Part shown: piece after piece, positions 1,863 to 56,483 of the stretch
Position numbering within the stretch: the first letter of the stretch is position 1
Layout: every line of letters starts with the position of its first letter
Source: Halarcobacter sp.
GTDB lineage: Bacteria > Campylobacterota > Campylobacteria > Campylobacterales > Arcobacteraceae
Assembly: GCA_048571215.1 (NCBI GenBank)
Contig: CP182352.1
Span: 2,976,001 to 3,040,000 of the forward strand
Direction of reading: 5' to 3'
Length of the DNA: 64,000 bases
Notes under the pieces: generated by a model
Database searches by the model: none
What the model was told of the DNA's origin: nothing
The model's input: only the letters and a program-made list of their open reading frames with translations
Program-made: the position numbers and the translations under genes

Positions 1863-3064
1863 CTGATTCCCTTAGTAAAATAGATAGATTTTGCTAATGA
1901 ATTAAAATAAATCTCTTTTTCATCAACAACTTTTAATTTATATTTTATTATTTCATTAAAATTTTTTATTAACGATTTTGAATCAATATTTTTATAAGAG
2001 TTAAAATTGTTATAAGACTCTAATACTTTTTGTAATTGTTCAAATCTTGAAAGAATATCTTTATTTATAATATTTACAGTTTCACATGAAACATTTAAAT
2101 TTTCTTGCAAAATATTAATTTGATTTTTAAAACTATTTTTCATATCTTTAACATTATTATCAAGTTCAAGAGTTTTGAACTTCGCTTTTCTTGATTTGAT
2201 ATCTTCACTTCCATAAATAGATAAAGGGATTGCAACAGCAAAATTTACATAGTCGTCATATTTATTATCTCTTTGAAAATATGTAAGGGTAAAATTAATA
2301 TCAGAATTTTTTTTCTCTTTTTCTAATTTTGAGATATTTTCAAACTTTTTTGAACTCTCTTTCAGTGATAAGATTTTTGGATGTTTATCTATTTGGGGGA
2401 AAAGATTGATTTTTTTGATTTCCATATCTATATCTATATTTTTATACTTTTCGTAACTAATCTCTTCTAGCTTTATTTTTTCTATATTTAACATAGATTT
2501 CAATTTTTGAGTTTTTAGATTTAACTCATGGTAAATAATTTGTGTATTCAAAATCTCTTTTTGCGAGGCTTTATTATATTTATAAAGCTGTGTAAATAAA
2601 TCTTCTAATTTTTTTGTATTTACTTTAAATTTCTCAAATAAAGATAATCTCTCTTCAAGTAGTTTTATATTGTAAATATATTCATAAATTTTAGATTTAT
2701 ATAGAAGTTTTTTATCCTCAACAATATATTTTGAAATCTCATAATCATTTAGAGCTATATCTTTTTCAACTTCTAGTTTATCTCCTAAGGGTACAACTTG
2801 TGAAAAGCCGATAAATTGAGCTTGCATAGGTTCTTTATCCCTAGACAAGCTATCATTAAACTGAACATCAGTTGCACCAAAACTAAGAGTTGGGTTTTTC
2901 CACTTTGAGCTTAAACTAATTTGCTGTTTTATATCATTAATAGATTCCTCTAAAGCTTTTAGACTATAATTTTTTTTAAAACTATTTTCTACAATTTCAT
3001 CTATGTTTTTTGCACTTAAAAAAGTAGATATAAAAAACAGTAGAAGAAAAGATCTTTTTAACAT
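1859..3064 (-). CDS. TolC-family outer membrane efflux protein (CrdB-like)
   Basis: Signal peptide, NP.L.F motif, helical repeats; lies between crdA-like and MFP genes as in the H. pylori crdAB-czcBA operon. Confidence 0.82.
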   Translation of the reverse strand: MLKRSFLLLFFISTFLSAKNIDEIVENSFKKNYSLKALEESINDIKQQISLSSKWKNPTLSFGATDVQFNDSLSRDKEPMQAQFIGFSQVVPLGDKLEVEKDIALNDYEISKYIVEDKKLLYKSKIYEYIYNIKLLEERLSLFEKFKVNTKKLEDLFTQLYKYNKASQKEILNTQIIYHELNLKTQKLKSMLNIEKIKLEEISYEKYKNIDIDMEIKKINLFPQIDKHPKILSLKESSKKFENISKLEKEKKNSDINFTLTYFQRDNKYDDYVNFAVAIPLSIYGSEDIKSRKAKFKTLELDNNVKDMKNSFKNQINILQENLNVSCETVNIINKDILSRFEQLQKVLESYNNFNSYKNIDSKSLIKNFNEIIKYKLKVVDEKEIYFNSLAKSIYFTKGIR

Positions 3065-3072
3065 GGGTTTTC

Positions 3073-3453
3073 CTATAGATTTATACTAGATCTAATAGTA
3101 TGAACTTTCCCATCTTGGGTTTTAAACTTTAAATGGTATTGCCATGTACCACCCATTGGAAAATTGATTGAGGTTTTAAATTTACCATCTACAAATTTTG
3201 CTTTTTGGGTTTGTTCCATATATGGCATTCCTGGCATCTCTGGCATAAAGAATTTTATTTTTACCTTTGCATTAGTAACAGCAACAGTATCTTTAGCTAA
3301 AGTAATAAAAAAAGTATTATTACCAACTACAAGTGATTTCTCAGACTTCAGTGTAATCTCATATCCATCTTTCTTTCCACTTAAATCAATAGGATCTGCA
3401 TTTAGCAAACCAAAAGTTAATAATAGTGCTCCAATAAATTTCACTAGTTTCAT
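3073..3453 (-). CDS. crdA: Copper resistance protein CrdA-like (YtkA/FixH-like, secreted, Met-rich)
   Basis: Signal peptide; FFMPEMPGMPYM and MGGTWQ motifs as in H. pylori CrdA; first gene of the operon; SD AAGGAG. Confidence 0.8.
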   Translation of the reverse strand: MKLVKFIGALLLTFGLLNADPIDLSGKKDGYEITLKSEKSLVVGNNTFFITLAKDTVAVTNAKVKIKFFMPEMPGMPYMEQTQKAKFVDGKFKTSINFPMGGTWQYHLKFKTQDGKVHTIRSSINL

Positions 3454-3478
3454 AAAGACTCCTTAAAAAATTTATGGA

Positions 3479-3510
3479 ATTCTATTATTTTTATGAGGAG
3501 GGTGTGTGGA
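3479..3510 (-). promoter_or_regulatory. crdA promoter: AC-rich direct repeat with 11-bp period (TCCACA-N5-TCCTCA), putative CrdR/OmpR-type box, plus -10 TAGAAT
   Basis: On the + strand, tgagga 3494-3499, tgtgga 3505-3510 and attcta 3479-3484. Confidence 0.55.
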
Positions 3511-3518
3511 AAAAAATT

Positions 3519-4670
3519 TTAGTTAAATTTGAAAGAAAAAGTTGTACCCTCTTTTAGTTTTGATTCTACATGAAATTTTATATTATATTTATAACAGATA
3601 TTTTGAACAATATTAAGCCCTATCCCAAAACCACCCTGTTCTTTTGTAGCTCTATAGTATCTATTGAAAATATCCTTTATTTTATCTTTTGGTATACCAA
3701 CTCCACTATCATCAATAACTAAAACATTTGATTTTAATTTTATGTTTATATTCCCTTGTTTTTTATTATATTTAATAGCATTTGATAAAATATTGTTAAA
3801 GAGTCTAATAAAATCATCCCTTTGTATTTTATACTCAAACTCTTTTAGTTCACAAGATATTGTAACTCTTTTTTTATGGGCTAAAATCTTAAAATAAGGC
3901 AATTGTTCCTCAATCAATTGGTCTAATCTATGATTTTCTAATTGGGGGTTTTTTTCATGTTCTTCTAAAAAAACAAAGGTTAAATCCTGATATACTTCTG
4001 ATATTCTTTTTGCAGCAAGTTTAATTCTGTCTATTTGTTTTTTCGATAACTCTGTATCTTCTGTAGACATCAAAATAGCACTGACTGGAGTATTTAACTC
4101 ATGGGTACTATCTTTTATAAAGGTGTTTAATTTTTCCCTTTCATCTTTTATAGGTTTTATAAAAAGTTTTGCTAAATAAAAACCAATCAAAGATATAAAT
4201 GTGAAAATTAGTATAAAAATAAAAATAGTATTGCTTTTTAGCTTATCTATTGTTTTTGCATATAAGTTCTCTTCAATAGCTATATAATAAATCCCTAAAT
4301 GACCATATGTTGAGTTATTTATAAGGGTAAAATTTCTATCTTGAACTATTATTTTTTTGCTAAAATCTATATTCCCATCCAAATTTCCAAAAAGTTTTTT
4401 TCTATTTTTATCATAAAAAGAAATTTTATATTCACTCTTATTCATAAATGAGGAGCTATCAAGTTTTGTTCCACTCATATGTGAATAGATAACTTGTGAT
4501 GAGATATTTGATACTACATTTTCCATTTTTGTTTTAGTTAAATCAAAATATAGTTTTTTTTCATTTTCATAATAAAGCAGTGCAATTATCATCAAAAGAA
4601 CGAATGAACCACCAAAATATAAGCCAAAAAATCTTAGAAAAGTTATCTTTTCACTTCTTGTTAAATCTAT
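3519..4670 (-). CDS. Sensor histidine kinase (CrdS-like); probable non-canonical ATA start at 4670
   Basis: H-box DSTHELNTP, N-box NILSNAIKYN, G-boxes DSGVGI and GGFGIGL; frame open 25 codons upstream of track start 4595 to an AAGGAG SD. Confidence 0.88.
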   Translation of the reverse strand: MDLTRSEKITFLRFFGLYFGGSFVLLMIIALLYYENEKKLYFDLTKTKMENVVSNISSQVIYSHMSGTKLDSSSFMNKSEYKISFYDKNRKKLFGNLDGNIDFSKKIIVQDRNFTLINNSTYGHLGIYYIAIEENLYAKTIDKLKSNTIFIFILIFTFISLIGFYLAKLFIKPIKDEREKLNTFIKDSTHELNTPVSAILMSTEDTELSKKQIDRIKLAAKRISEVYQDLTFVFLEEHEKNPQLENHRLDQLIEEQLPYFKILAHKKRVTISCELKEFEYKIQRDDFIRLFNNILSNAIKYNKKQGNINIKLKSNVLVIDDSGVGIPKDKIKDIFNRYYRATKEQGGFGIGLNIVQNICYKYNIKFHVESKLKEGTTFSFKFN

Positions 4671-4753
4671 AATTATCTCCTTAAATGTTTCAGGATTATA
4701 TCATAAAATATTTTTCCATGTACATTACACAAAAAATCAACTATAATTTTACT

Positions 4754-5410
4754 ATGAAAATATTACTACTAGAAGATGATACTTTATTAAATGAGATTAT
4801 AGAAGAATTTTTGGAAAAACTAAACCATAAAGTAGTATCCACTTATGATGGGCAAGAGGCTATTGAAGCTGTATTTGAAGAAAATTTTGATTTACTTATT
4901 TTAGATGTAAATGTACCTTTGATAAATGGTTTTGAAGTTTTAAAAGAGCTTAAAAGAAATAGCATAAATACTCCAACCATATATATAACCTCTCTTCATA
5001 CCTTAAAAGATATGGAGATAGGATTTAAAGCTGGAGCTGATGATTATATGAAAAAACCTTTTCATCTTAGTGAACTAAAACTTAGAATTGAAAATATTGT
5101 AAGATTAAGACATATTGAAAATAGTGGTGATAATAAAATAAACGACACAATAAGCTATAACTATGATACAAAAACAATAAAAGTATCACAACAAAAGCAT
5201 ACTCTATCTAAAACAGAAGCAAAAGTATTTGAATACTTTTTGAAAAATAGAAATAGATCCATCTCAATTGAAGAGATTAGCTTAAACAATTGGTCCTATG
5301 AAGAGGCTCCTACGGCAACTACAATAAGAACATATATAAAAAATCTTAGAAAAATTTTAGGTAAAGATATGATTGATACTTTTAAAGGAATCGGTTACAA
5401 ATTAAAATAA
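4754..5410 (+). CDS. OmpR-family response regulator (CrdR-like); probably leaderless
   Basis: MKILLLEDD...DLLILDVNVP...GADDYMKKPF...TYIKNLRK...GIGYKL; TATAAT at 4742-4747 ends 6 nt before ATG 4754. Confidence 0.92.
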   Translation: MKILLLEDDTLLNEIIEEFLEKLNHKVVSTYDGQEAIEAVFEENFDLLILDVNVPLINGFEVLKELKRNSINTPTIYITSLHTLKDMEIGFKAGADDYMKKPFHLSELKLRIENIVRLRHIENSGDNKINDTISYNYDTKTIKVSQQKHTLSKTEAKVFEYFLKNRNRSISIEEISLNNWSYEEAPTATTIRTYIKNLRKILGKDMIDTFKGIGYKLK

Positions 5411-5469
5411 ACTATCCTATACTAAAAAGTAATATATCTTTTGTTATAATCTTTTTTTAAAGGGATAAA

Positions 5470-6876
5470 ATGGTTAATAAAAGTATATTTAGAGAATATG
5501 ATATTAGAGGAATAGTTGGAGCTGATTTAAATAAAGAGTCGGTGAAATTAATTGGTTTTTTCTTAGGGAAAAGAGTTTATGAAAAGTTCAAAGAGAACTC
5601 TTATATCTCAATTGGCTACGATGCAAGAACCCACTCACCTGAACTTTTTTCATATTTGGCAAGTGGTTTTAATAAAGCTGGATGTACTGTATTAAATATG
5701 GGTATGGTTGCAACTGGTGTAAACTATTTTTCAAACTACCAAGAGTTTGAAATAGAGGGTAAAAAGATTCAAGCAAATTGCTCTGTTATGATAACAGGAA
5801 GTCACAATCCAAGTGAATATAATGGCTTTAAAATCACCCTTGACAAAAAACCATTCTTTGGAGAAGATATCTATACTTTGGGGGATGAGATTATTGCAAG
5901 TGATGTACAAATTGAAGACAATGATAAAAACTATCCAATAGATGTAAAATCACTATATATAAACTATATAGTAAATGAATTTTCATTTTTAAAAGGGATG
6001 AAAGAAAGATTTATTATAGATTGTGGAAATGGAGTTGCTGATACAGTTCTTACAACTATATTAGATAAATTAGAATTAAACTATGATGGTCTATATTGTG
6101 AACCAGATGGAAGTTTTCCTAACCATCATCCAGATCCAAGTGAAGAGAAAAATCTAAAAGATATAATGGCTGCTTTAAAGGGTAATTATGAGTTTGGTTT
6201 TGCCTATGATGGAGATGCAGATAGAATCGCATTTTTAACAAAAAAGTATAATGTAAAAGGTGATATCATGGCACTTTTATTTGCAAAAACCATGACAAAT
6301 CCTACAATAATTGGTGAAGTTAAATGTACTCAAGTTATGTATGATATTATAAATAAAACAGGTAAAGCTGTTATGTACAAAACAGGTCACTCAAACTTGA
6401 AAGTAAAACTAAAAGAGCTTAATGCAGACCTAGCAGCAGAAGTTTCTGGACATATATTTTTCAATGATAGATATTTTGGTTTTGATGATGCCATTTATGC
6501 TACATTTAGACTACTAGAACTAATTTATAATAAAATGGATATTGATGCCCAAATTGATGCCCTACCTAAGACTTATTCAACAGAAGAGATAAAAGTAAAA
6601 ACAAGTGAAGAGGAAAAGTTTTTACTAATTGACAAGGTAAAAGAACATCTTAAAAACCCACCAGCTAATTTTCCTGCGATAAAAGATATTATTGATGTGG
6701 ATGGGGTTAGAGTTATCTTTGATAAGGGCTGGGGGCTTGTAAGAGCTTCAAATACAACACCTGTTCTTGTTACTAGATTTGAATCTACAGATGAAGCTAT
6801 GGCAAAAATATATGAAGAGAAACTGAACAATTTAATTCAAATGGCAAAAGATGAACTTAATAGCACTTCAAACTAA
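5470..6876 (+). CDS. Phosphomannomutase/phosphoglucomutase
   Basis: IFREYDIRG, ITGSHNP, DGDADR, AEVSGH, VRASNTTP motifs. Confidence 0.95.
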   Translation: MVNKSIFREYDIRGIVGADLNKESVKLIGFFLGKRVYEKFKENSYISIGYDARTHSPELFSYLASGFNKAGCTVLNMGMVATGVNYFSNYQEFEIEGKKIQANCSVMITGSHNPSEYNGFKITLDKKPFFGEDIYTLGDEIIASDVQIEDNDKNYPIDVKSLYINYIVNEFSFLKGMKERFIIDCGNGVADTVLTTILDKLELNYDGLYCEPDGSFPNHHPDPSEEKNLKDIMAALKGNYEFGFAYDGDADRIAFLTKKYNVKGDIMALLFAKTMTNPTIIGEVKCTQVMYDIINKTGKAVMYKTGHSNLKVKLKELNADLAAEVSGHIFFNDRYFGFDDAIYATFRLLELIYNKMDIDAQIDALPKTYSTEEIKVKTSEEEKFLLIDKVKEHLKNPPANFPAIKDIIDVDGVRVIFDKGWGLVRASNTTPVLVTRFESTDEAMAKIYEEKLNNLIQMAKDELNSTSN

Positions 6877-7576
6877 AACTTTAGATGATTTCCAAAAAAA
6901 TCTAAAACACTTAAAAGAGTTGATTTTACAATGTGAAGACAACTCTTTTATCCTTGCTCCTGAGGTTTGTCTAACAGGTTTTTGTTATGATAAGATGGAA
7001 GAAGCTTGTAGTTTTAATCTAAAAGCGATAAAAGAGATTGAAGTTTTGAGTAAAAATAAAACTATAGCCTTAACTTTTATTACAAAAAAACAGAACTCTT
7101 ACTTTAATACCTTATATATATTTCATAAGGGCAAAACTATTCACACCCAATCTAAACATCGTTTATTTCCCCTAGGAGATGAACATGATCATTTTATGAG
7201 TGGTGATTTAGAAGATATGAAAATAATTGATATTGATGGAGTTAAAGTAGCAACTCTAATCTGCTTTGAGATTAGATTCCCACAATATTGGCTGAAGGTT
7301 TTAGGGGCTGATTTAATTTTAAATCCATCAATGTGGGGATTAAAAAGAAAAGCCCATTATGAAACCATGACAAAAGCTTTAGCTGTTGCAAACCAATGTT
7401 TTGTACTTACTGCAAATAGTGCGGATGAAAATATGGCAAAAGGAAGCGGTATTATAAACCCTTGGGCAGATGAGTTTAGAGATGATGAAAAAGAGCTAAT
7501 AAAACAAAAAATAGATCTAAACGAAGTATTAAAGATTAGAAAATATATAGATATAGGATTGAAAAATAGTGAATGA
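6851..7576 (+). CDS. Carbon-nitrogen hydrolase (nitrilase superfamily)
   Basis: Glu-Lys-Cys triad motifs APE, SKHRLF, LICFEIRFP. Confidence 0.9.
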   Translation: MNLIALQTKTLDDFQKNLKHLKELILQCEDNSFILAPEVCLTGFCYDKMEEACSFNLKAIKEIEVLSKNKTIALTFITKKQNSYFNTLYIFHKGKTIHTQSKHRLFPLGDEHDHFMSGDLEDMKIIDIDGVKVATLICFEIRFPQYWLKVLGADLILNPSMWGLKRKAHYETMTKALAVANQCFVLTANSADENMAKGSGIINPWADEFRDDEKELIKQKIDLNEVLKIRKYIDIGLKNSE

Positions 7577-8021
7577 AGTTAAATCAATAATTTTTGTGTG
7601 TTTAGGAAATATTTGTCGTTCCCCTTTAGCAGAAGGTATTGCAAAAGAGTATGCTAAAAAGAACAATTTGGATATAAAAATAGCAAGTGCTGGTACAGGA
7701 AGTTGGCATATAGGTGATGCTCCTTGTGAGAACTCTATAAAAGTAGCAAAACAAAATGGGATAGATATCTCAAAACAAAAAGCTCAACAGATAAAAAAAG
7801 AGCACTTTAAAGAGTATGATTTAGTTGTTGCACTTGATAGTAAAAATCTTGCCGATTTAAAAAAGCTAGGTGCAAAGCCACTTAAACTTGGAGATTATGG
7901 TTATGAAGGTCAAGATGTACCAGACCCCTACTTTTTCCCAGGATTTGAAGGATTTGATAAGGTTTATAAAATGATAGAAACTTGTGTAAAAAACCTAATT
8001 AAACAGAAGATCTCACACTAA
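7569..8021 (+). CDS. Low molecular weight protein-tyrosine phosphatase
   Basis: FVCLGNICRSP P-loop; VPDPY. Confidence 0.95.
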   Translation: MNEVKSIIFVCLGNICRSPLAEGIAKEYAKKNNLDIKIASAGTGSWHIGDAPCENSIKVAKQNGIDISKQKAQQIKKEHFKEYDLVVALDSKNLADLKKLGAKPLKLGDYGYEGQDVPDPYFFPGFEGFDKVYKMIETCVKNLIKQKISH

Positions 8022-20518: not shown

Positions 20519-21514
20519 TTATTCCACATCACAAAATTCAAGTGACAATGTTTTTGGTTTTTCAACTGAATTGTTATTTAAAATATAAAGATTTTTCAAA
20601 CTCTTTAGATTTTCTATAGAGTCTGGTAAAGAATCCAAACTATTATCCTCAACATCTAATTCTTCTAATTTTTGCAACTGACCAATGTTTTCAGGCAAAG
20701 ATTCTAAACAATTAGCACTTACACTTAGGCTTGTTAAGTTTTTAAGTTTACAAATCTCTTCTGGTAGAGTTTTTAGCTCATTATTATCCAAAATCAATAT
20801 TTTTAAATCTTCCAATTTACTGACATTAAAGTCCAATGAGGTCAAAGAGTTATCACTCAAATCAAGTTTTATCAACATATCATGAGACTCTAATGACGGT
20901 AAATTTTGTAGATGATTACCCTCTAGCAACAGTGTTTCAAGCTCTTCAATCGCAGAGATTGATTTAGGCAAATATTTCAAATTATTAAATGAAAAATCTA
21001 CATAATATAAAGTATTCATCTTAGAAAATGCATCAGGTAACTCATTTAATTCATTTGTATCAAAAGATAAATACAATAATTTATTTAGCTTTTCCAAGCC
21101 CATAGACAAAGATTCAATTTTATTTGCAGCAACGGTAAGTCTAGTTAAGTTTGTCAGATTATAAATCTCTTCAGGAAGGGTTTTTAATCTATTTCCATTT
21201 AGATTTAAAATCATCAACTTTGATAGATTACCAATAGTTGAGGGAATCTCTTCTAAAAGATTATTTTCACATTGAAGATTTTTTAAATTTTTAAGTTCCC
21301 CAATAGCTTTTGGCAAAATTTTTAGTCTATTATTTGATAATTTTAGAACTGAAAGGTTTTTTAATACCCCAAAAGATTCAGGTAACTCCCTAATCTTCTT
21401 TTTTGATAAATCTAAATGGGTCATCATATTAATATCATCTATATGTGTTGAAATTGTGGAAGTTAATCCAGCTGATTTAACCCATCTAATAAAATTCTCA
21501 ATATCATTACTCAT
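20519..21514 (-). CDS. Leucine-rich repeat protein (about 12 x 23-aa LRRs)
   Basis: Repeats of LxxLxLxxNxLxxLPxxIxxL. Confidence 0.93.
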   Translation of the reverse strand: MSNDIENFIRWVKSAGLTSTISTHIDDINMMTHLDLSKKKIRELPESFGVLKNLSVLKLSNNRLKILPKAIGELKNLKNLQCENNLLEEIPSTIGNLSKLMILNLNGNRLKTLPEEIYNLTNLTRLTVAANKIESLSMGLEKLNKLLYLSFDTNELNELPDAFSKMNTLYYVDFSFNNLKYLPKSISAIEELETLLLEGNHLQNLPSLESHDMLIKLDLSDNSLTSLDFNVSKLEDLKILILDNNELKTLPEEICKLKNLTSLSVSANCLESLPENIGQLQKLEELDVEDNSLDSLPDSIENLKSLKNLYILNNNSVEKPKTLSLEFCDVE

Positions 21515-27352: not shown

Positions 27353-27712
27353 TTATTTTGCTATTAACCTTCTCATCCAAATTGGAGGATTATCTTGCAT
27401 CTTTATTAGAGAGTTTAAAACATCCTCTATTTTTTCATTTTCTTTGCTAGCTTGCATTGGAAATATCTTACAAGACTTAACCATCATCGATGCTTTTGGT
27501 CCTATTTGTTGCACATATAAAATATCAGCATCTTCAATACACTCTATTTTATATGTTAATTTATCAATCTCATCTTCTATCTCTATAGAGGAATCAACCG
27601 ACTTTACAAATTTGTAAGAATCACCTATTATCTCATATATATAAAACTCTTTACACCAACCAAAGTGTTGATTAACATAAATATTATCTTGAGATGCAAA
27701 TGCAATTTTCAT
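27353..27712 (-). CDS. NifX/NifY/NifB-family FeMo-cofactor binding protein
   Basis: MKIAFAS.D...VNQHFG, IGPKA, NPPIW. Confidence 0.85.
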   Translation of the reverse strand: MKIAFASQDNIYVNQHFGWCKEFYIYEIIGDSYKFVKSVDSSIEIEDEIDKLTYKIECIEDADILYVQQIGPKASMMVKSCKIFPMQASKENEKIEDVLNSLIKMQDNPPIWMRRLIAK

Positions 27713-28680
27713 AGTATAAATAACCTAACTTTTGGGTCTATAACTTTTTGCATAGTATCTGCAATCATAGAGTAAGTTCCAGTTGAAGCAATAGAACATC
27801 CAACACAGGCACCTTGATATGCCAGTCTTATCTCTATTTCTGGTTCATTTAAATAATCAATTAAAATCACATTTCCACCATCTTTTACCAAAATAGGTCG
27901 AATAAATCTATCTAAGGTATCATTTATAATCTCTAATTGTTTTTCTCTATCTTGTGCTCTAAAATGATCATTAAGTTCACATTGACTTGGTAACTCTTTG
28001 TCCATTCCTGTTAATTGAATATTTGCCATAGCATGACCATTTTTTGCAGCTTTTAACATACAATCAAAACCTTCTCTTACCCCATCAATATTTGTTCTAT
28101 CTTGAAGTTGCAATAAGGCCAATCTAAAAGCAGCTTGTGTATGATTTTTTCTTACTGCTCTTCTAAAATAATCTTTTGCTTTGTCCAAATCCTCTTCAAC
28201 ACCAATTTTAGTTTGATACATAAGTGCTAAATTGAAATTTGCTGAATCATTATCATACTCACTTGCTTTTTCAAACCAAGTTCTTGCAGTTTCAAAATCT
28301 TTTTCAACACCCTCACCTTTTAGATACATCAATCCAAGGTTTGCCATAGCTTGATCATTTTTAAACTTTACTTCTTCTTCCCAGATTTTTAATGCAGTTT
28401 CAAAATCTTTACTCTTATATGCTGCAAGTGCTTCTCTATGTCTCATAAATCTTCTTCCTTCTCCTGGTTTTGGTAATTCTCTTCCAGCTTTTAATTCTTT
28501 TTGTATATGCTCATACAAATATTCATAGGCTAACTCTATAGCTTCTTCATAATCCTCACTAGCAGCTTTAATATCAAAATCTAAAAACTCCACTAAAAAG
28601 GCATCTCCAACTTCGTGTTCTCCACTATAACACTCAAATGGATAATCTAAAGACTGGTAATAAGCTAAACTTTTTTCCAT
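27709..28680 (-). CDS. Fusion protein: HicB-like N-terminus + Sel1 repeats + NifU/Nfu C-terminal domain
   Basis: EEAIELA...ELKAGRELPKP; AMANLGLMYLKGEGVEKD repeats; IRPILVKDGGNV...QGACVGC. Confidence 0.85.
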   Translation of the reverse strand: MEKSLAYYQSLDYPFECYSGEHEVGDAFLVEFLDFDIKAASEDYEEAIELAYEYLYEHIQKELKAGRELPKPGEGRRFMRHREALAAYKSKDFETALKIWEEEVKFKNDQAMANLGLMYLKGEGVEKDFETARTWFEKASEYDNDSANFNLALMYQTKIGVEEDLDKAKDYFRRAVRKNHTQAAFRLALLQLQDRTNIDGVREGFDCMLKAAKNGHAMANIQLTGMDKELPSQCELNDHFRAQDREKQLEIINDTLDRFIRPILVKDGGNVILIDYLNEPEIEIRLAYQGACVGCSIASTGTYSMIADTMQKVIDPKVRLFIL

Positions 28681-40594: not shown

Positions 40595-41834
40595 TAAAAC
40601 AAATATAACTTTAAAAAATAGCTTCAGTCAAACTCAATTTATTGATTGGAGAACTCAACCTAAAGCTTATAAAGAATATCCAAAGTTTTTTAGAAGATTT
40701 AACCTTGATGACTATGAAGAGTTAAAATTTATAAAAAACTTTGGGAAAATCACTTTTACTAAAAAATATGCCCAAGAAGAGGTAAACTTAAGAACAAATC
40801 CAAGTGCTGGTGGACTATATCCTTGTGAAGTATATATACAGATTAGGGGAATAAAAGGGGTTTTATCTGGTATTTATCATTATGAACCTCTAACAAATCA
40901 ACTTACTTTGATTCATGAGTTAAGTCTTGATGGACTTGAACCCTATTTTAAAGATTTAAAACAACAAAAATTTATTTTCTTACTTAGTTGTGCTTATTTT
41001 AGAAGCTCTTGGAAATATGAAAAAAGAGCTATAAGATATCTACTTTTAGATACAGGTCATCAAATTGCTTCTATTTATAGTGCCTTAAAACTTGCAAAAA
41101 TAGAAAATACTTTATGTTTTAATTTTGATAAAAAGCTTTTAAACAAGGATTTTGGTTTTGAAGATAGTGAATTCTTTTTATCTTCCCTTCTTAGCAGTTC
41201 ACATAAAGATTATGAATGTAAAAAAAGTTTAAGAGAAAAAATAGTTAGTGTTTCACCTTGCGATTATCAGATAAAAGAGCCTTTTATAGAAGAGTTTTAT
41301 AGAAAATCTTTAGAAAAAAGTGCAGAAAATATAAACTTAGCAAACTTTCTTAATGATTTAGATGAGGATCAACTTCAAAAAGCTATTGACAATAGGCGCT
41401 CAATAAGAGCTTTTAAAAAAGAGTCTATAAAAAAAGAGGAATATGAGTTTATAATAAAAGATATATTCGAATATGCAAAATCTTTTAACATAGAGATATA
41501 TCTAATAAACAACAATATAGAAACTATACAGAAAGGATGTTACAAAAATGTAACATTGCAAGAGAAGGGCGATTTTCAAGAGCTTGCAACAAAACTTGCA
41601 TTTAATCAAAAGCTAGCAGGGAATAGTGCCTTTACCCTAATATATACCTCAAATGAGAAAGAAAACTATATAAGAAATTATATTTTATGTGGTTTTTTAG
41701 CACATATTATTCATCTTAAAGCGACTCATCTAAAGCTTGGGTGTAGTGGCATCGGGGCATATTTTGATGACGAATGTAAAAGATTTTGCAAAACACAGAA
41801 TAATATACTTTACCTACAGGCGGTTGGAAAATGA
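40578..41834 (+). CDS. SagB/ThcOx-type tandem nitroreductase-family flavoprotein
   Basis: DW..QP...KEYP, LRTNPSAGGLYP.E, RSSWKY..RA.RY..LD.GH, RRSIR, GCSGIGAYFD. Confidence 0.88.
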   Translation: MQEFHNKTNITLKNSFSQTQFIDWRTQPKAYKEYPKFFRRFNLDDYEELKFIKNFGKITFTKKYAQEEVNLRTNPSAGGLYPCEVYIQIRGIKGVLSGIYHYEPLTNQLTLIHELSLDGLEPYFKDLKQQKFIFLLSCAYFRSSWKYEKRAIRYLLLDTGHQIASIYSALKLAKIENTLCFNFDKKLLNKDFGFEDSEFFLSSLLSSSHKDYECKKSLREKIVSVSPCDYQIKEPFIEEFYRKSLEKSAENINLANFLNDLDEDQLQKAIDNRRSIRAFKKESIKKEEYEFIIKDIFEYAKSFNIEIYLINNNIETIQKGCYKNVTLQEKGDFQELATKLAFNQKLAGNSAFTLIYTSNEKENYIRNYILCGFLAHIIHLKATHLKLGCSGIGAYFDDECKRFCKTQNNILYLQAVGK

Positions 41835-42130
41835 GTAAGGAAACATATGTAAATCTATTTAAAAAATATAACTTATACAGAAGTGATATTTATATGTTAA
41901 CCAAAATAAATACAGCAGATATATTTTTTCTCTTTGAAGATGTTTGTGAAGAGCTAGTTGAACAAAGAGCGATAAATAGACAGTTACCACCTGAGTTTAT
42001 AAACAATGCAAAACTATTTGTAGGACAAAATACTTTTATAAATGTATATTTTGCAGATATTGATAATAGAGCTTTCTTTTTAAGTGACCTTATTGATTTT
42101 TTAGCCTTGATAAGAAGTAAACAAAAATAG
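41831..42130 (+). CDS. Hypothetical protein, 99 aa
   Basis: ATGA overlap with upstream gene. Confidence 0.7.
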   Translation: MSKETYVNLFKKYNLYRSDIYMLTKINTADIFFLFEDVCEELVEQRAINRQLPPEFINNAKLFVGQNTFINVYFADIDNRAFFLSDLIDFLALIRSKQK

Positions 42131-44393: not shown

Positions 44394-44738
44394 ATGGCAA
44401 GAGTTATTTTCATGCATTTTGATACTGCAACTGACGGTGTTTATGATGCAAAAATCGGTGAACCTATTGTTAGGTTAGCAAAAGAGAAAGGTGTTCCAGT
44501 ACCTTCAGATACTACAGATTATTCTAAAAGTTTAATTTATGTTGAGAATCTTTCAGATGAAGAACCTACAAGTTATATGGAAGATGAAGAATTAGATGTA
44601 TTAGTTGAACTTGGAGCTATTTCAAAAGAAGAGGCAGACCAATGTCAACAATTTACAATCAGCCCAAAAGTTAGAATTGCACCAATGATGTTAATCAAAG
44701 GTGATATCTTAGTTAAACCATATAAATTAAAAAAATAA
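44394..44738 (+). CDS. FeSII (Shethna protein II)-like ferredoxin-fold protein lacking cluster cysteines
   Basis: SD AAGGAG, ATG 44394; aligns by eye end to end to A. vinelandii FeSII (recalled sequence) but the CxxxxCxxC...C ligands are absent. Confidence 0.65.
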   Translation: MARVIFMHFDTATDGVYDAKIGEPIVRLAKEKGVPVPSDTTDYSKSLIYVENLSDEEPTSYMEDEELDVLVELGAISKEEADQCQQFTISPKVRIAPMMLIKGDILVKPYKLKK

Positions 44739-50596: not shown

Positions 50597-50641
50597 TTCT
50601 ACGATCCTTTTTTTTTAATTTGTGAATAAAAGATTAGTAGC

Positions 50642-50674
50642 AAATGGTTATAAAATGGTTACAATTGATTTACA
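50642..50674 (-). promoter_or_regulatory. Pho-box-like direct repeats with 11-bp period upstream of pstS
   Basis: + strand GTTATA / GTTACA / TTTACA at 11-bp intervals (aaatggtta at 50642 and 50653). Confidence 0.65.
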
Positions 50675-50938
50675 AATATCAAAATAATTTTTATTTACTC
50701 TAAGTAAACTGCTACGATATAGTAGTTCTGAAAAAGATATAAAAATTTTATCAAAATTTTAAATTATTTATTTATTAATCAATTTTATATATTCATATAG
50801 TTCCTTTCATCTATATATAATGTAAACAATAAATTAACTTCATATAAAAAAACATCTATATTAATAAAAAGCTACAACATATATATAGTAAAAATAAAAA
50901 CTAAAATATATAGTTTAAATTAATAAAGCACAAAATAG

Positions 50939-52105
<1,167 letters not shown>

Positions 52106-52158
52106 GCCTAAATAAAAAATAAAATAAAACATAAAATAAAAATAAAGAAGGAGATAAT

Positions 52159-52518
52159 ATGTTTGTATGTGGATACCACTTCCCAGCTGATATGGGTAAT
52201 GATGTAAGTTTTGATAAAGTAATAGAAAAAGTTGAAGAAGGTATTGAAGCTGCAGGTAAAACTGTAACTATAACAAGTGAAACTAGAGAAGGTGTTAAAC
52301 TAGAAGAGATCTCTATCCCTGAAGGTTCTTTCTTACACACTGCATTTGTTGATTATTATACTAACACTGAATGTGCAGAAAAAGATGGTTTCAAAATGGT
52401 TTATTACACAAATAAATACCAAATCTCAGAAATTTCTAAATCAGTTGATGGTGATGCAACTAAAGCTATTTGTAAAAAATTAGATGATATGAATCTATAT
52501 AGAGTAAAAGTAGCGTAA
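52159..52518 (+). CDS. Unknown 119-aa protein between nifH and nifD
   Basis: Strong SD AAGGAG; codon usage like nifHDK; no P-II motifs. Confidence 0.85.
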   Translation: MFVCGYHFPADMGNDVSFDKVIEKVEEGIEAAGKTVTITSETREGVKLEEISIPEGSFLHTAFVDYYTNTECAEKDGFKMVYYTNKYQISEISKSVDGDATKAICKKLDDMNLYRVKVA

Positions 52519-52530
52519 GCTACCTTTACT
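52503..52530 (+). other. GNRA-capped stem-loop between the unknown ORF and nifD
   Basis: agtaaa-a-gtagc-GTAA-gctac-c-tttact. Confidence 0.6.
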
Positions 52531-52549
52531 ACCCTAAGAAGGAGAAAAT

Positions 52550-54016
52550 ATGGGACCAGAGACATTAGAGAGTCTACAAAATGAAGCTATTGAGGAAGTA
52601 CTAAGTGCTTATCCTGCAAAAGCTGCAAAAAACAGAGCAAAACACTTAGGTGTTGATGCACCAGAAGGTGTAAAAGGTGCTTGTGATAAAACTAGAAGTA
52701 ATAAACAAACTGTACCAGGAGTAATGTCGCAAAGAGGTTGTGCTTATGCGGGTTCTAAAGGGGTTGTTTGGGGACCAATTAAAGATATGATTCATATCTC
52801 ACATGGACCAATTGGATGTGGACAATATTCAAGAGGTGGGAGAAGAAACTATTATATCGGTACAACTGGTGTTGATACTTTTGTTACAATGAACTTCTCA
52901 ACTGACTTTAACGAAAAAGACATCGTATTCGGTGGAGATAAAAAACTTAAAAAAGCTTTAGAAGAAATTGATGATTTATTCCCATTAAACAATGGTATCT
53001 CAATTCAATCTGAGTGTCCAATCGGTCTAATCGGTGATGATATTCAAGCGGTTGCTAAAGTACATAAAAAAGAAACTGGTCATCAAACAATTGCTGTTTC
53101 ATGTGAAGGATTTAGAGGGGTTTCACAATCTCTTGGTCACCACATTGCAAATGACATGATTAGAGACCACGTTATGCCAGATACATCACACAGAAAAGAT
53201 TTCGAATCAACTGAATATGATGTAGCTATTATTGGGGATTATAACATCGGTGGTGATGCTTGGGCAACAAGAATCATCTTAGAAGAAATGGGATTAAGAG
53301 TAATTGCTCAATGGTCTGGGGATGCAACTTATAAAGAGTTAGCAATCGCTCCAAAAGCAAAACTTAACTTACTTCACTGTTATAGATCTATGAACTATAT
53401 TTCAAGACATATGGAACAAGAATTCGGTATACCTTGGATGGAATATAACTTCTTTGGACCAAGTAAAACAACTGAGTCTATTAGAAAAATCGCTTCATTC
53501 TTTGACGAAGCAATTCAAGAAAAAGCTGAAGCTGTTATTGCTAAATATACTGCTATGACTGATGCTGTTATTGCTAAATATAAACCTTTATTAGAGGGTA
53601 AAAAAGTTATGCTTTACGTTGGTGGATTAAGACCAAGACACGTTATTGGTGCATACGAAGATTTAGGAATGGAAGTAATCGGTACTGGTTATGAGTTCGC
53701 TCACGGTGATGATTATAAAAGAACTAAAGAAGATATTGAAAGATCTACTTTAATTTATGATGATGCTAATGAGTACGAATTAGAGCAATTCGTTAAGAAA
53801 TTGAGACCAGATTTAGTTGCTGCTGGTGTTAAAGAGAAATATGTATTCCAAAAAATGGGTCTACCATTTAGACAAATGCACTCTTGGGACTACAGTGGTC
53901 CATACCATGGATACGATGCGTTTGCAGTTTTTGCAAAAGATATGGATTTAGCTATGAATTCTCCTGTATGGGATCATACTACAGCTCCATGGGATAAAGA
54001 AGTAGAGGGAGCGTAA
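52550..54016 (+). CDS. nifD: Nitrogenase MoFe protein alpha chain
   Basis: RGCAYAG, HGPIGC, SECP, LHCYRS, GGLRPRH, QMHSWDY. Confidence 0.99.
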
Positions 54017-54017
54017 T

Positions 54018-55565
54018 ATGCAAGACGTAGAAAACATAGTAAACGGACAAAAACTATTTTTAAAACCTGAATATCAAGAAGTTTTAAAAAACAAAAAACA
54101 ATTCGAAGGTGCAATGGGTGCAATTGATACTGCCAAAGTTGATGAAATTCAAGAATGGACTAAATCTTGGGATTATAGAGAAAAGAATTTAGCAAGAGAA
54201 GCAATTACTGTTAATCCAGCTAAAGCTTGTCAACCTCTAGGTGCTGTAATGGTTGGTCTTGGTTTTGAAAACACTATGCCATATGTACATGGTTCACATG
54301 GTTGTGTTTCATACTTTAGAACTTACTTTACAAGACACTTTAAAGAACCAACTCCATGTGTTTCTGACTCAATGTCTGAATCTGCAGCGGTATTTGGTGG
54401 TTTAGCAAATATGAAGGATGGTTTAAGAAACTGTAACGCTTTATATAAGCCTGATATGATTGCAGTATCTACTACATGTATGGCAGAAGTTATCGGTGAT
54501 GACTTAAATGCATTTATTTTAGGTGCAAGAGAAGAAGCTGAAGGTGAATTAGATAATATCGAAATCCCTTATGCTCATACTCCATCATTCGTAGGTTCTC
54601 ATATTACTGGTTATGATAATATGATGAAATCTATCTTAGAGCAATTAAACCCAACTAGATCAGAAAGAGTTGAAGATGAGGAAAGAATCAATATCATTCC
54701 TGGTTTTGAACCATATTTAGGGTCTTTAAAAGAGATTAAAAATATTGCTAAAATGTTTGGTGACAAAATTGTTATGTTAGGTGACCATGAAGAGCAATGG
54801 GATACTGGAGCTGGTGAATATAAATTATATGCTGGTGGTACAACTATAGCTGATACAAAAACTGCTATCAATGCTAAAGCTACTATCTCATTACAAAAAT
54901 ATTCAACAATAGCAACTGCTAAAACTATTAAAAACAAATGGAAACAAACTTTTGAAACTTGTAATCCAATTGGTTTAAGTGGTACTGATGCTTTTGTTAT
55001 GAAACTAGCTGAATTAACTGGTAAAGAAGTTCCTGCTGAACTTAAAAACCAAAGAGCTAGACTTGTTGATGCTATGCAAGATTCTTATCCATATATGCAT
55101 GGTAAGAAAATTGCAATCTGGGGAGATCCTGACTTTTTATTAGGTATGGTTTCTTTCTTAGTTGAAATGGGAGCAATTCCAACTCATGTTGTATGTCATA
55201 ATGCACCAAGAAAAGGTTGGGAAGCAGAGATGAGAGCAATCTTAGATAAATCAAACAGATCTGACGAGTGTAACATCTGGCCAGGTAAAGATTTATGGGC
55301 ATTAAGATCATTATTATTCACAGAACCAGTTGATTTCATGATTGGTAACGTTTATGGTAAAGAACTTTACAGAGATACAAAAACTCCACTTATCAGAATT
55401 GGTTTCCCAATTTTTGATAGACATCACTTACATAGATACTCTATGAGTGGTTATGAGGGTGCAATTAACTTATTAACTTGGATTACTAATGGTGTTCTTG
55501 ACCAATTAGATGAAGAGACTAAAGATATAGGTGAAACAGATTACTTCTTTGATTCAGTAAGATAA
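54018..55565 (+). CDS. nifK: Nitrogenase MoFe protein beta chain
   Basis: NPAKACQP, HGSHGC, TTCMAEVIGDD, TPSF, GFPIFDRHH. Confidence 0.99.
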   Translation: MQDVENIVNGQKLFLKPEYQEVLKNKKQFEGAMGAIDTAKVDEIQEWTKSWDYREKNLAREAITVNPAKACQPLGAVMVGLGFENTMPYVHGSHGCVSYFRTYFTRHFKEPTPCVSDSMSESAAVFGGLANMKDGLRNCNALYKPDMIAVSTTCMAEVIGDDLNAFILGAREEAEGELDNIEIPYAHTPSFVGSHITGYDNMMKSILEQLNPTRSERVEDEERINIIPGFEPYLGSLKEIKNIAKMFGDKIVMLGDHEEQWDTGAGEYKLYAGGTTIADTKTAINAKATISLQKYSTIATAKTIKNKWKQTFETCNPIGLSGTDAFVMKLAELTGKEVPAELKNQRARLVDAMQDSYPYMHGKKIAIWGDPDFLLGMVSFLVEMGAIPTHVVCHNAPRKGWEAEMRAILDKSNRSDECNIWPGKDLWALRSLLFTEPVDFMIGNVYGKELYRDTKTPLIRIGFPIFDRHHLHRYSMSGYEGAINLLTWITNGVLDQLDEETKDIGETDYFFDSVR

Positions 55566-55571
55566 TCTTTT

Positions 55572-55602
55572 AAAACTAGAGGAAAAACCTCTAGTTTTTT
55601 TT
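55572..55602 (+). terminator. Intrinsic terminator after nifK
   Basis: aaaactagagg-aaaaa-cctctagtttt followed by T run. Confidence 0.85.
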
Positions 55603-55607
55603 AAGTA

Positions 55608-55689
55608 AGCGTTATATACTAAGGAATATAATGATAGAATTTCCTTAGTTTTTTTTAATCTATCGTTATATATAAAAAGATATAACAAA
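55608..55689 (+). promoter_or_regulatory. Two tandem ModE boxes upstream of modE
   Basis: AGCGTTATATA-N6-AATATAATGAT (55608-55635) and ATCGTTATATA-N6-GATATAACAAA (55662-55689), matching ATCGNTATATA-N6-TATATANCGAT. Confidence 0.8.
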
Positions 55690-55697
55690 AAAGGAAA

Positions 55698-56483
55698 GTG
55701 ATGGAAATATCATCAAACTTAACATTAGAACTCCTAGACCAACCTTTTTTACTTGAAAAAAGGATTAATTTGCTTTTTGCTATACAAAAATGTGGCTCAA
55801 TAAGTAAAGCAGCAAAAGAGGTTCCTATGAGTTATAAAAAAGCCTGGGAAGCAGTTGATACTATGAACAATCTATCTCCTACTGCAATAGTAACAACAGA
55901 AACAGGTGGTAAAGGTGGAGGGGGTACAGTTTTAACCCCCTATGGGGAAAACTTACTAAAAACATATCTTGTGTTAAAACATGAACACAAAAAATTTTTA
56001 GAGATTTTAAAAAATATGACTGACATAGACTCAGGAACTTTAAAAACAATTGGGAGACTTTCGATGCAAATAAGTGCTAGAAACCAAATAAGAGGAAAAG
56101 TAGAATTGATTGAGGAGGGTAAAGTAAATGCCCAAGTTTATGTAAAACTAAAAAGTGGTTACACTTTGGTCTCAACTATTACAAAAACAGCAGTTAATAA
56201 TTTGAACTTAAAAATAGATGATGAAGTAACTGCTTTTTTTAAATCAAGTACAGTTCTAATCACTACAGATTTAACACTAAATATAAGTGCTAGAAATAAG
56301 TTCCAAGGTAAAATTGAAAATATTCACACAGGCGAAGTTAATAGCGAAGTGATTATTGATATTGGGAACATGGATAAAATAGCATCTATTGTAACCTCAG
56401 GATCGATTAGGTCTTTAGATTTAAAAGAGGGTGTGCAAGTAAGTGCTATTATAAAAGCAAGTGACATAATGATAGGAAAGTAA
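55698..56483 (+). CDS. modE: Molybdate-responsive regulator ModE (wHTH + 2 TOBE)
   Basis: GSISKAAK...MSYKKAW, GGKGGGG..LT, two SARN TOBE repeats. Confidence 0.95.
   Translation: MMEISSNLTLELLDQPFLLEKRINLLFAIQKCGSISKAAKEVPMSYKKAWEAVDTMNNLSPTAIVTTETGGKGGGGTVLTPYGENLLKTYLVLKHEHKKFLEILKNMTDIDSGTLKTIGRLSMQISARNQIRGKVELIEEGKVNAQVYVKLKSGYTLVSTITKTAVNNLNLKIDDEVTAFFKSSTVLITTDLTLNISARNKFQGKIENIHTGEVNSEVIIDIGNMDKIASIVTSGSIRSLDLKEGVQVSAIIKASDIMIGK

Follow-up and report, generated by a model that had tools for sequence, protein, structure and literature searches.

In the nitrogenase cluster of this Halarcobacter genome, nifH and nifD are separated by a small gene, here called X, whose 119-residue product probably binds the nitrogenase Fe protein, NifH. 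X is filed here as a candidate nitrogenase accessory protein of a new family, predicted from a complex model to act at a new site. The features concerned lie within the window, the whole stretch of 64 000 nucleotides that was analysed, as follows.

51136..51151, forward strand: sigma54-type (-24/-12) promoter-like motif TGGAAC-N5-GTGCA, 55 nt 5' of nifH
51191..52105, forward strand: nifH (Fe protein, 304 aa), TIGR01287 above cut-off
52148..52153, forward strand: Shine–Dalgarno sequence AAGGAG of X, 5 nt 5' of the ATG
52159-52518, forward strand: X, encoding an acidic alpha/beta protein of 119 aa that belongs to no known family and is a predicted partner of NifH
52503..52530, forward strand: GNRA hairpin across the X stop codon, ending 9 nt 5' of the nifD Shine–Dalgarno sequence
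52550..54016, forward strand: nifD (group I MoFe protein alpha), TIGR01282 above cut-off
54018..55565, forward strand: nifK (MoFe protein beta), TIGR01286 above cut-off
55572..55598, forward strand: intrinsic terminator-like stem 3' of nifK, the sole terminator-like site within 50600-55800

X is confirmed as a real, conserved gene. The first-pass annotation had described an acidic open reading frame of 119 residues with an AAGGAG Shine–Dalgarno sequence and the codon usage of nifHDK, and all of these points were borne out. The product contains 21 D+E against 14 K+R residues (pI 4.8), and an SD-like 4-mer was present upstream of X in 113 of 113 distinct loci. With nifHDK as the reference, the codon use of X ranks 23rd among 2995 crude genome ORFs and 8th among the 798 ORFs of < 200 aa, and its company at the top of the ranking consists of ribosomal and EF-Tu-like genes; judged by its codon bias, X may be an abundant protein. 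The gene is under purifying selection: pairing the copy in the window with others gave a median dN/dS of 0.13 in 59 comparisons, divergent and gapped loci having been excluded. Contigs from RNA runs (4 runs, 4 studies, small-share holders) cover X partly or wholly and show neither level nor co-transcription; some such contigs from relatives span nifH-X or X-nifD and, having no DNA control, were not counted as evidence.

Homologues of X numbered 282 in a single-sequence phmmer search and 420 in a profile search. Among the matches listed (120 per search) none carried a Pfam domain, and nearly all of the named ones were annotated as ‘hypothetical protein’ and came from Arcobacter, Halarcobacter, Sulfurimonas and their kin. 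An exhaustive search of 1.84 billion representatives returned 23 matches, three of which were repeat artefacts: these long repeat proteins were rejected as relatives of X, their scores being sums of weak repeats. The divergent relatives (27-46% identity) belong to Sulfuricurvum, Sulfurospirillum and other Campylobacterales. A single record is labelled Marichromatium, but at the 90% level it clusters together with a protein of Sulfurospirillum, and so mis-binning is likely. Protein searches indicate that X is probably limited to Campylobacterota. In the divergent alignment (window numbering) the invariant residues are M1, F2, F8, G13, N85, Y87 and Q88. The absence of any invariant Cys or His from that alignment speaks against X being an obvious enzyme or a protein that binds a cluster; since C105 and H7 vary in divergent members, the idea of a metal site was abandoned.

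The first-pass annotation had also seen no P-II motifs in X, and the family searches agreed. Pfam and NCBIfam gave no family for X at E ≤ 1, only scattered weak matches, and no P-II match for any of 107 family members; a profile comparison by hhalign with the NifI of another Campylobacterota genome, G008, gave 0.2%, i.e. no profile similarity, and no P-II chain appeared among the fold matches listed for the X model. X occupies the slot between nifH and nifD, as NifI1/NifI2 do, but as a single gene rather than a pair, and on the HMM and profile results its identity as a P-II protein was rejected. The same databases (Pfam, NCBIfam) gave neither a PpiC/rotamase domain nor TIGR02933 (NifM) in X. 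Comparison by hhalign with an AnfG from genome L008 gave 0.1%, and X lies between the H and D genes, not between D and K. There was no Fer2 match and there were no four conserved cluster cysteines of the FeSII or 2Fe-2S ferredoxin kind. Pfam likewise returned no CowN, NifT, NifW, NifZ or NifX-like match for X, and genes for NifW, NifZ, NifX-like and CowN proteins are present as separate loci in the same genome, the CowN homologue lying distant from the nif cluster (G000:C1:2404561-2404854). Searches of PHROGs, PDB sequences, plasmids and viral folds gave no match; the ESM Atlas gave no usable one, and its low-recognition eukaryotic matches were disregarded. X thus has no Pfam, NCBIfam or PDB sequence match to a characterised family.

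The AlphaFold2 model of X (pLDDT 89.9, pTM 0.83) shows a small domain of alpha/beta type from which an N-terminal arm extends. The fold searches gave no clear match. The DapD N-terminal domain (THDPS_N, PF14790; 2rij, 3r5a) ranked best by two programs, with Z 5.7 and an rmsd of 4.5 Å over 103 residues; in Foldseek the match scored E 0.014 and TM 0.42, and the profile–profile (hhalign) probability was < 1%. This likeness is within the range of a common arrangement and gives no functional lead.

The nifH-X-nifD-nifK genes are inferred to form one operon, as a sigma54-type motif precedes nifH and a single terminator-like stem follows nifK. The motif scan used the standard sigma54 (-24/-12) consensus. 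Of 104 distinct loci, 54 carry such a motif in the 200 nt upstream of nifH, compared with 0.7% for shuffled sequences; it was present in only 1/109 nifH-X gaps and 0/101 X-nifD gaps. The nifH-X gap itself (52105-52147) is unstructured and made up of AAAAT-like repeats.

The GNRA hairpin reported earlier at the 3' end of X proved real. Its GUAA loop contains the stop codon, its folding energy is -11.4 kcal/mol (z -4.0), and 1 of 200 shuffled sequences folds equally well; no U-run follows it. The suggestion that it co-stabilises the X message with nifH did not generalise. Hairpins beating all 20 shuffles occur before X (nifH-X gap, 60/110 distinct loci) as often as after it (X-nifD gap, 58/110), with 34 loci having one in both gaps and 26 in neither, and the stop-codon hairpin of X was present in 34/110 distinct loci. 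In this genome the hairpin may play a part in setting transcript ratios; it is not evidence that X is levelled with nifH family-wide.

The synteny of X was followed in an even sample of 401 Campylobacterota genomes. Matches to X were obtained in 50 genomes, to group I nifD in 49 and to nifH in 51; none of the 350 census genomes that lack nifH gave a match to X. X was kept between nifH and nifD in all 49 of the group I nifD genomes (44 as loci and 5 by coordinates), and the X-bearing clusters span about 10 families. Species genomes gave 88 relatives, of which 80 were taken; a nitrogenase alpha gene lies downstream in 80/80 and nifH upstream in 78/80, the remaining two beginning near a contig end. 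Both the co-occurrence and the linkage of a nitrogenase accessory protein are thus found for X. No p-value is attached to the co-occurrence, because kin are not independent.

Two census genomes depart from the usual arrangement. In G296 the nif cluster is broken throughout (L111, 3152-10990: nifV, nifH, X, nifD, nifK, nifE and nifN in pieces), with a damaged X in the usual slot, reflecting either decay or an assembly error; a leucine-rich-repeat (LRR) gene, also broken, lies 5' of its nifH. G008 carries a group II cluster without X (L112, 836-9463: nifH-nifI1-nifI2-nifD-nifK-nifE-nifN-nifB), in which nifI1/nifI2 stand between nifH and nifDK, and which was probably acquired laterally. A search for fusion partners of X gave one match in 8000 scored candidates, a GTPase fragment joined to the X C-terminus, which was read as a chimeric assembly and rejected; P0136 and P0131 also appear chimeric, and an in-frame NifH-X join in G296 sits in the cluster that is full of breaks.

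These data bear directly on the possibility that X is a mere passenger, playing no part in nitrogenase. Strict co-occurrence and a fixed position across about 10 families, the purifying selection on X and its decay along with the cluster in G296 all speak against this, and we regard it as scarcely credible.

An additional copy of X is found in genome L008, where a second, near-identical nifH-X pair, and not anfH, heads anfDGK (2908-7727), ∼ 12 kb from the Mo operon. The duplicate X differs by two amino-acid and four silent changes. At 80 other anfD loci, most of which have an ordinary anfH, X was not found. This pattern suggests that X travels with this type of Fe protein; the duplication is recent, and X may therefore have hitch-hiked.

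NifH was the nitrogenase component modelled with X. The NifH2-X2 model reached an ipSAE of 0.84 in each of three runs, against 0.22 for the best of three controls, with contact agreement between runs of at least 96% and a partner pLDDT of 90; by itself, the AlphaFold2 NifH monomer model had a pLDDT of 48 and was set aside as unusable. The ipSAE mark applied was reached by 116/157 solved complexes and 2/215 mismatched pairs, counts that are rough here given the use of own alignments and of 2+2 copies. Recall of a like complex by the predictor is unlikely, since X has no solved sequence relative or clear fold match. The model supports binding, rather than showing it, and indicates NifH as the partner. 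Together with the census and the synteny, it lends weight to the proposal of the first-pass annotation that X is a lineage-specific nitrogenase partner and not a P-II protein.

In the model the X interface comprises residues 1-15, 43, 71-73, 80-87 and 109-113, the contacts being made by the conserved N-terminal arm (M1, F2, G5, H7, P9, A10, G13 and N14), by Y82-Y83-T84/Y87 and by D109/M111. On the other side, the predicted NifH interface spans residues 201-230 and 248-269, with contacts through the helix 205-218, the strand 223-227, the PRSN loop 227-230, the helix 250-263 and residues 264-269; past the insertion described below, this numbering is offset by 15 from that of solved NifH. The cluster cysteines C112 and C147, and R115 (A. 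vinelandii Arg100), are all outside the interface. The contact stops at V269, and P271 is the equivalent of Pro256. Residues 201/203, adjacent to N200, and the loop 227-230 correspond to A. vinelandii 186/188 and 212-215, residues that would line the adenine pocket; no paper confirming this was found in the literature searched.

The placement of the interface was compared with conservation and covariation in the two proteins. Of the 22 most conserved X positions, 12 fall among its 21 interface residues (p 9e-6). Campylobacterota-specific NifH positions, at which the residue fixed in 77 sequences is seldom met among 10 outgroup NifH and 36 AnfH, number 11 when the insertion is excluded, and four of these (A201, M203, Y208 and D266) are among the 30 interface residues (p 0.024; p 0.05 on variable columns). 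In addition, the variable interface columns (8 by 10) covary above random column sets (p 0.005). The tests used self-chosen thresholds, ignored phylogeny and shared their alignments with the model, and so they are consistency checks and not independent support.

The identity of the partner was also approached from whole-protein evolution. Mirror-tree, whole-protein mutual information and split comparisons did not separate NifH from NifD as the partner of X, the distance correlation of X being 0.91 with NifD and 0.90 with NifH. This equally high NifD value, and the position of X directly 5' of nifD, favour a reading in which X serves the MoFe protein or its maturation as a partner, in the manner of AnfG/VnfG, NifW or NifZ, and the pass of the NifH model is false. 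We give that reading a low probability: the NifH model passed strongly with its controls, lineage-specific NifH residues lie at the interface, X shows no AnfG profile similarity, and in L008 a nifH-X copy precedes an operon that already carries anfG.

Campylobacterota NifH has features of its own. Relative to solved NifH, the window copy contains a 12-aa insertion at about residues 83-95; an insertion of 9-12 aa with an invariant F86 was present in 102/102 distinct Campylobacterota NifH; none of the solved, outgroup or AnfH sequences compared contains it. Binding of X to this insertion found no support: none of the contacts listed for the model involves the insertion, which also displayed no extra covariation. 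Three insertions that mark clades are named in the available text of PMC12425478, and all of them lie in D or K. Residues 28-35 of NifH (MCHYYGKK) carry a one-residue insertion and an aromatic pair; in this they resemble AnfH (AMAHFYDKK) and differ from A. vinelandii-type NifH.

A second conserved patch on X (N85, Q88, E91, S93, K94 and D97) lies outside the listed interface; the predicted binding accounts neither for this patch nor for the NifH insertion, a point against the NifH-partner reading. This patch, or the NifH insertion with its invariant F86, could be used if X were an adaptor or protective factor that holds NifH on one face and a third protein (flavodoxin or ferredoxin, NifEN, or an FeSII-like protein) on another; the cluster does encode a flavodoxin-like ORF, a 2Fe-2S ferredoxin and an FeSII-like gene that in this lineage is without its cysteines. 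The fusion search gave no third partner, and the FeSII-like gene was found in 34/50 nif genomes (one query) against 49/50 for X. An adaptor role is accordingly given a fairly low probability.

The FeSII/Shethna-II-like gene (window 44394-44738, forward strand) has lost all four [2Fe-2S] cysteines. Its best PDB matches are 9iey (E 0.005) and FeSII itself, 5ffi (E 0.03). Some of its homologues in the nif genomes retain CxxxxCxxC...C, while no more than one cluster ligand is left in those from same-family genomes and from a single other family (12-13 genomes). The codon use of the gene is in the top 3%. It may encode a cluster-less nitrogenase protection protein. Elsewhere in the window, a 99-aa ORF without a Pfam/NCBIfam match (41831-42130, forward strand) lies in the nif accessory run, directly 5' of a NifX-like gene. 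Two further genes were named from their translations: a leucine-rich-repeat protein between nifQ-like and nifV-like genes (20519-21514, reverse strand), whose gene is the one that recurs in G296, and, close to nifB, a protein that has Sel1 repeats and, at its C-terminus, a NifU-like CxxC segment (27709-28680, reverse strand).

The best explanation of these observations, for which the chances appear about even, is that X is a dedicated partner of the Campylobacterota Fe protein, acting as a stabiliser or maturation subunit. One X would bind per NifH monomer, in a predicted H2X2 assembly, on the C-terminal face of NifH. As the contact face points away from C112, C147 and R115, X could stay bound through turnover and leave the cluster and the Arg100 face free. 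As a bound accessory subunit it would fold and stabilise NifH, and might so do the job of NifM without a PPIase domain. This role, on which our judgement is evenly balanced, was ranked first on account of the structural-gene codon use of X, the free cluster face, the adjacency to Pro256 and the lack of NifM: no NifM above cut-off was found in any of 50 nif genomes or in this one, with weaker PPIase matches in 33/50. Pro256 is proposed as the NifM-relevant proline in the accessible part of PMC12691677. The same source reports that many NifH proteins mature without NifM, and the absence of NifM hence demands no substitute.

A stronger form of the proposal, held tentatively, is that an H2X2 heterotetramer is the native form of the Campylobacterota nitrogenase reductase. 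As a permanent second subunit, X would then cover the NifH face next to the nucleotide pocket, make up for the loss of the Asp214 equivalent and be required for activity, in Mo and Fe-only nitrogenases alike.

The same part of the interface can be read in another way, namely that X is a reversible regulator at the nucleotide pocket of NifH, tuning the binding or exchange of MgATP/MgADP and providing a switch-off route without DraT or NifI. The interface includes NifH 201, 203 and the loop 227-230, within which position 229, the Asp214 equivalent, is replaced in 77/77 Campylobacterota sequences and is Asp in 9/10 outgroup NifH and 35/36 AnfH. DraT was found neither in 50 nif genomes nor in this one, in a search that lacked a positive control, and X occupies the slot that nifI1/nifI2 hold in G008. 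Nevertheless, an inhibitor encoded in the structural operon with equal codon bias needs a signal input, and none was found; X has no P-II or other sensor domain and no invariant Cys/His ligand. Moreover, its predicted site is away from the face of Arg100, the docking and DraT-target residue (PMC13474568, in part), and NifI1/I2 bind NifDK according to the same text. Regulation by X is thus judged unlikely. The candidate roles rank in the order stabiliser, regulator, adaptor, NifDK partner and passenger, and stabilisation or maturation of NifH by X remains the preferred reading.

No paper describing X was found in the literature searched, most subscription papers and figures being outside its scope (Fig. 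5B of PMC11474244 may draw X). In the part of a nif survey seen (PMC11773926), the Arcobacter nitrofigilis and Sulfurospirillum barnesii clusters are written as ...nifHDK..., with the H-D gap empty. Campylobacterota are described in the accessible text of PMC11474244 as the dominant dark nitrogen fixers of mangrove sediments, with cultured 15N2-fixing isolates, and the existence of these makes an experimental test of X feasible. The maturation of NifH without NifM is called an open question for nitrogenase engineering in the available part of PMC12691677. If the proposal is correct, a 13-kDa NifH stabiliser would be useful in that field, and Campylobacterota nifH may fail in heterologous hosts that lack X. 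The Fe protein is regarded as a simple homodimer with few known partners (NifM, DraT/DraG, FeSII, electron donors and NifDK/NifEN). A much-studied enzyme would gain a component if a family unrelated to these, present in each of the group I clusters examined in one phylum, bound a different face of NifH. Were X a permanent subunit, it would be a new kind of component, and this Fe protein would be the first to possess a small subunit of its own.

X was compared with the closest known systems. The match to the DapD N-terminal domain (Campylobacter/Pseudomonas) omits the conserved N-terminal arm of X. AnfG/VnfG, the delta subunit of alternative nitrogenases, is also the product of a ∼ 120-aa gene in the structural operon and gives a precedent for a small extra subunit; AnfG is all-helical, bound to the D subunit and encoded between anfD and anfK. 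X, in contrast, shows no profile similarity to it and coexists with anfG in L008. FeSII (Shethna protein II) and DraT/DraG resemble X in that they bind or act on the Fe protein, but X lacks both an enzyme motif and conserved cluster cysteines, and is predicted to sit on NifH away from the cluster and from Arg100. The P-II switch-off proteins NifI1/NifI2 share with X their small size and the nifH-nifD slot; X is one gene, gives no P-II match by HMM, by profile or among the listed fold matches, and is predicted to partner NifH, as opposed to NifDK for NifI1/I2 (PMC13474568, in part). The likeness to NifM, the PpiC-type maturase of NifH, is in the job proposed for X, maturation of NifH, and in the predicted contact, which stops near P271, the Pro256 equivalent. 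X differs from NifM in having no PPIase domain or sequence similarity and less than half its size, and in being encoded inside nifHDK, with predicted 1:1 binding to NifH and the codon bias of a structural gene.
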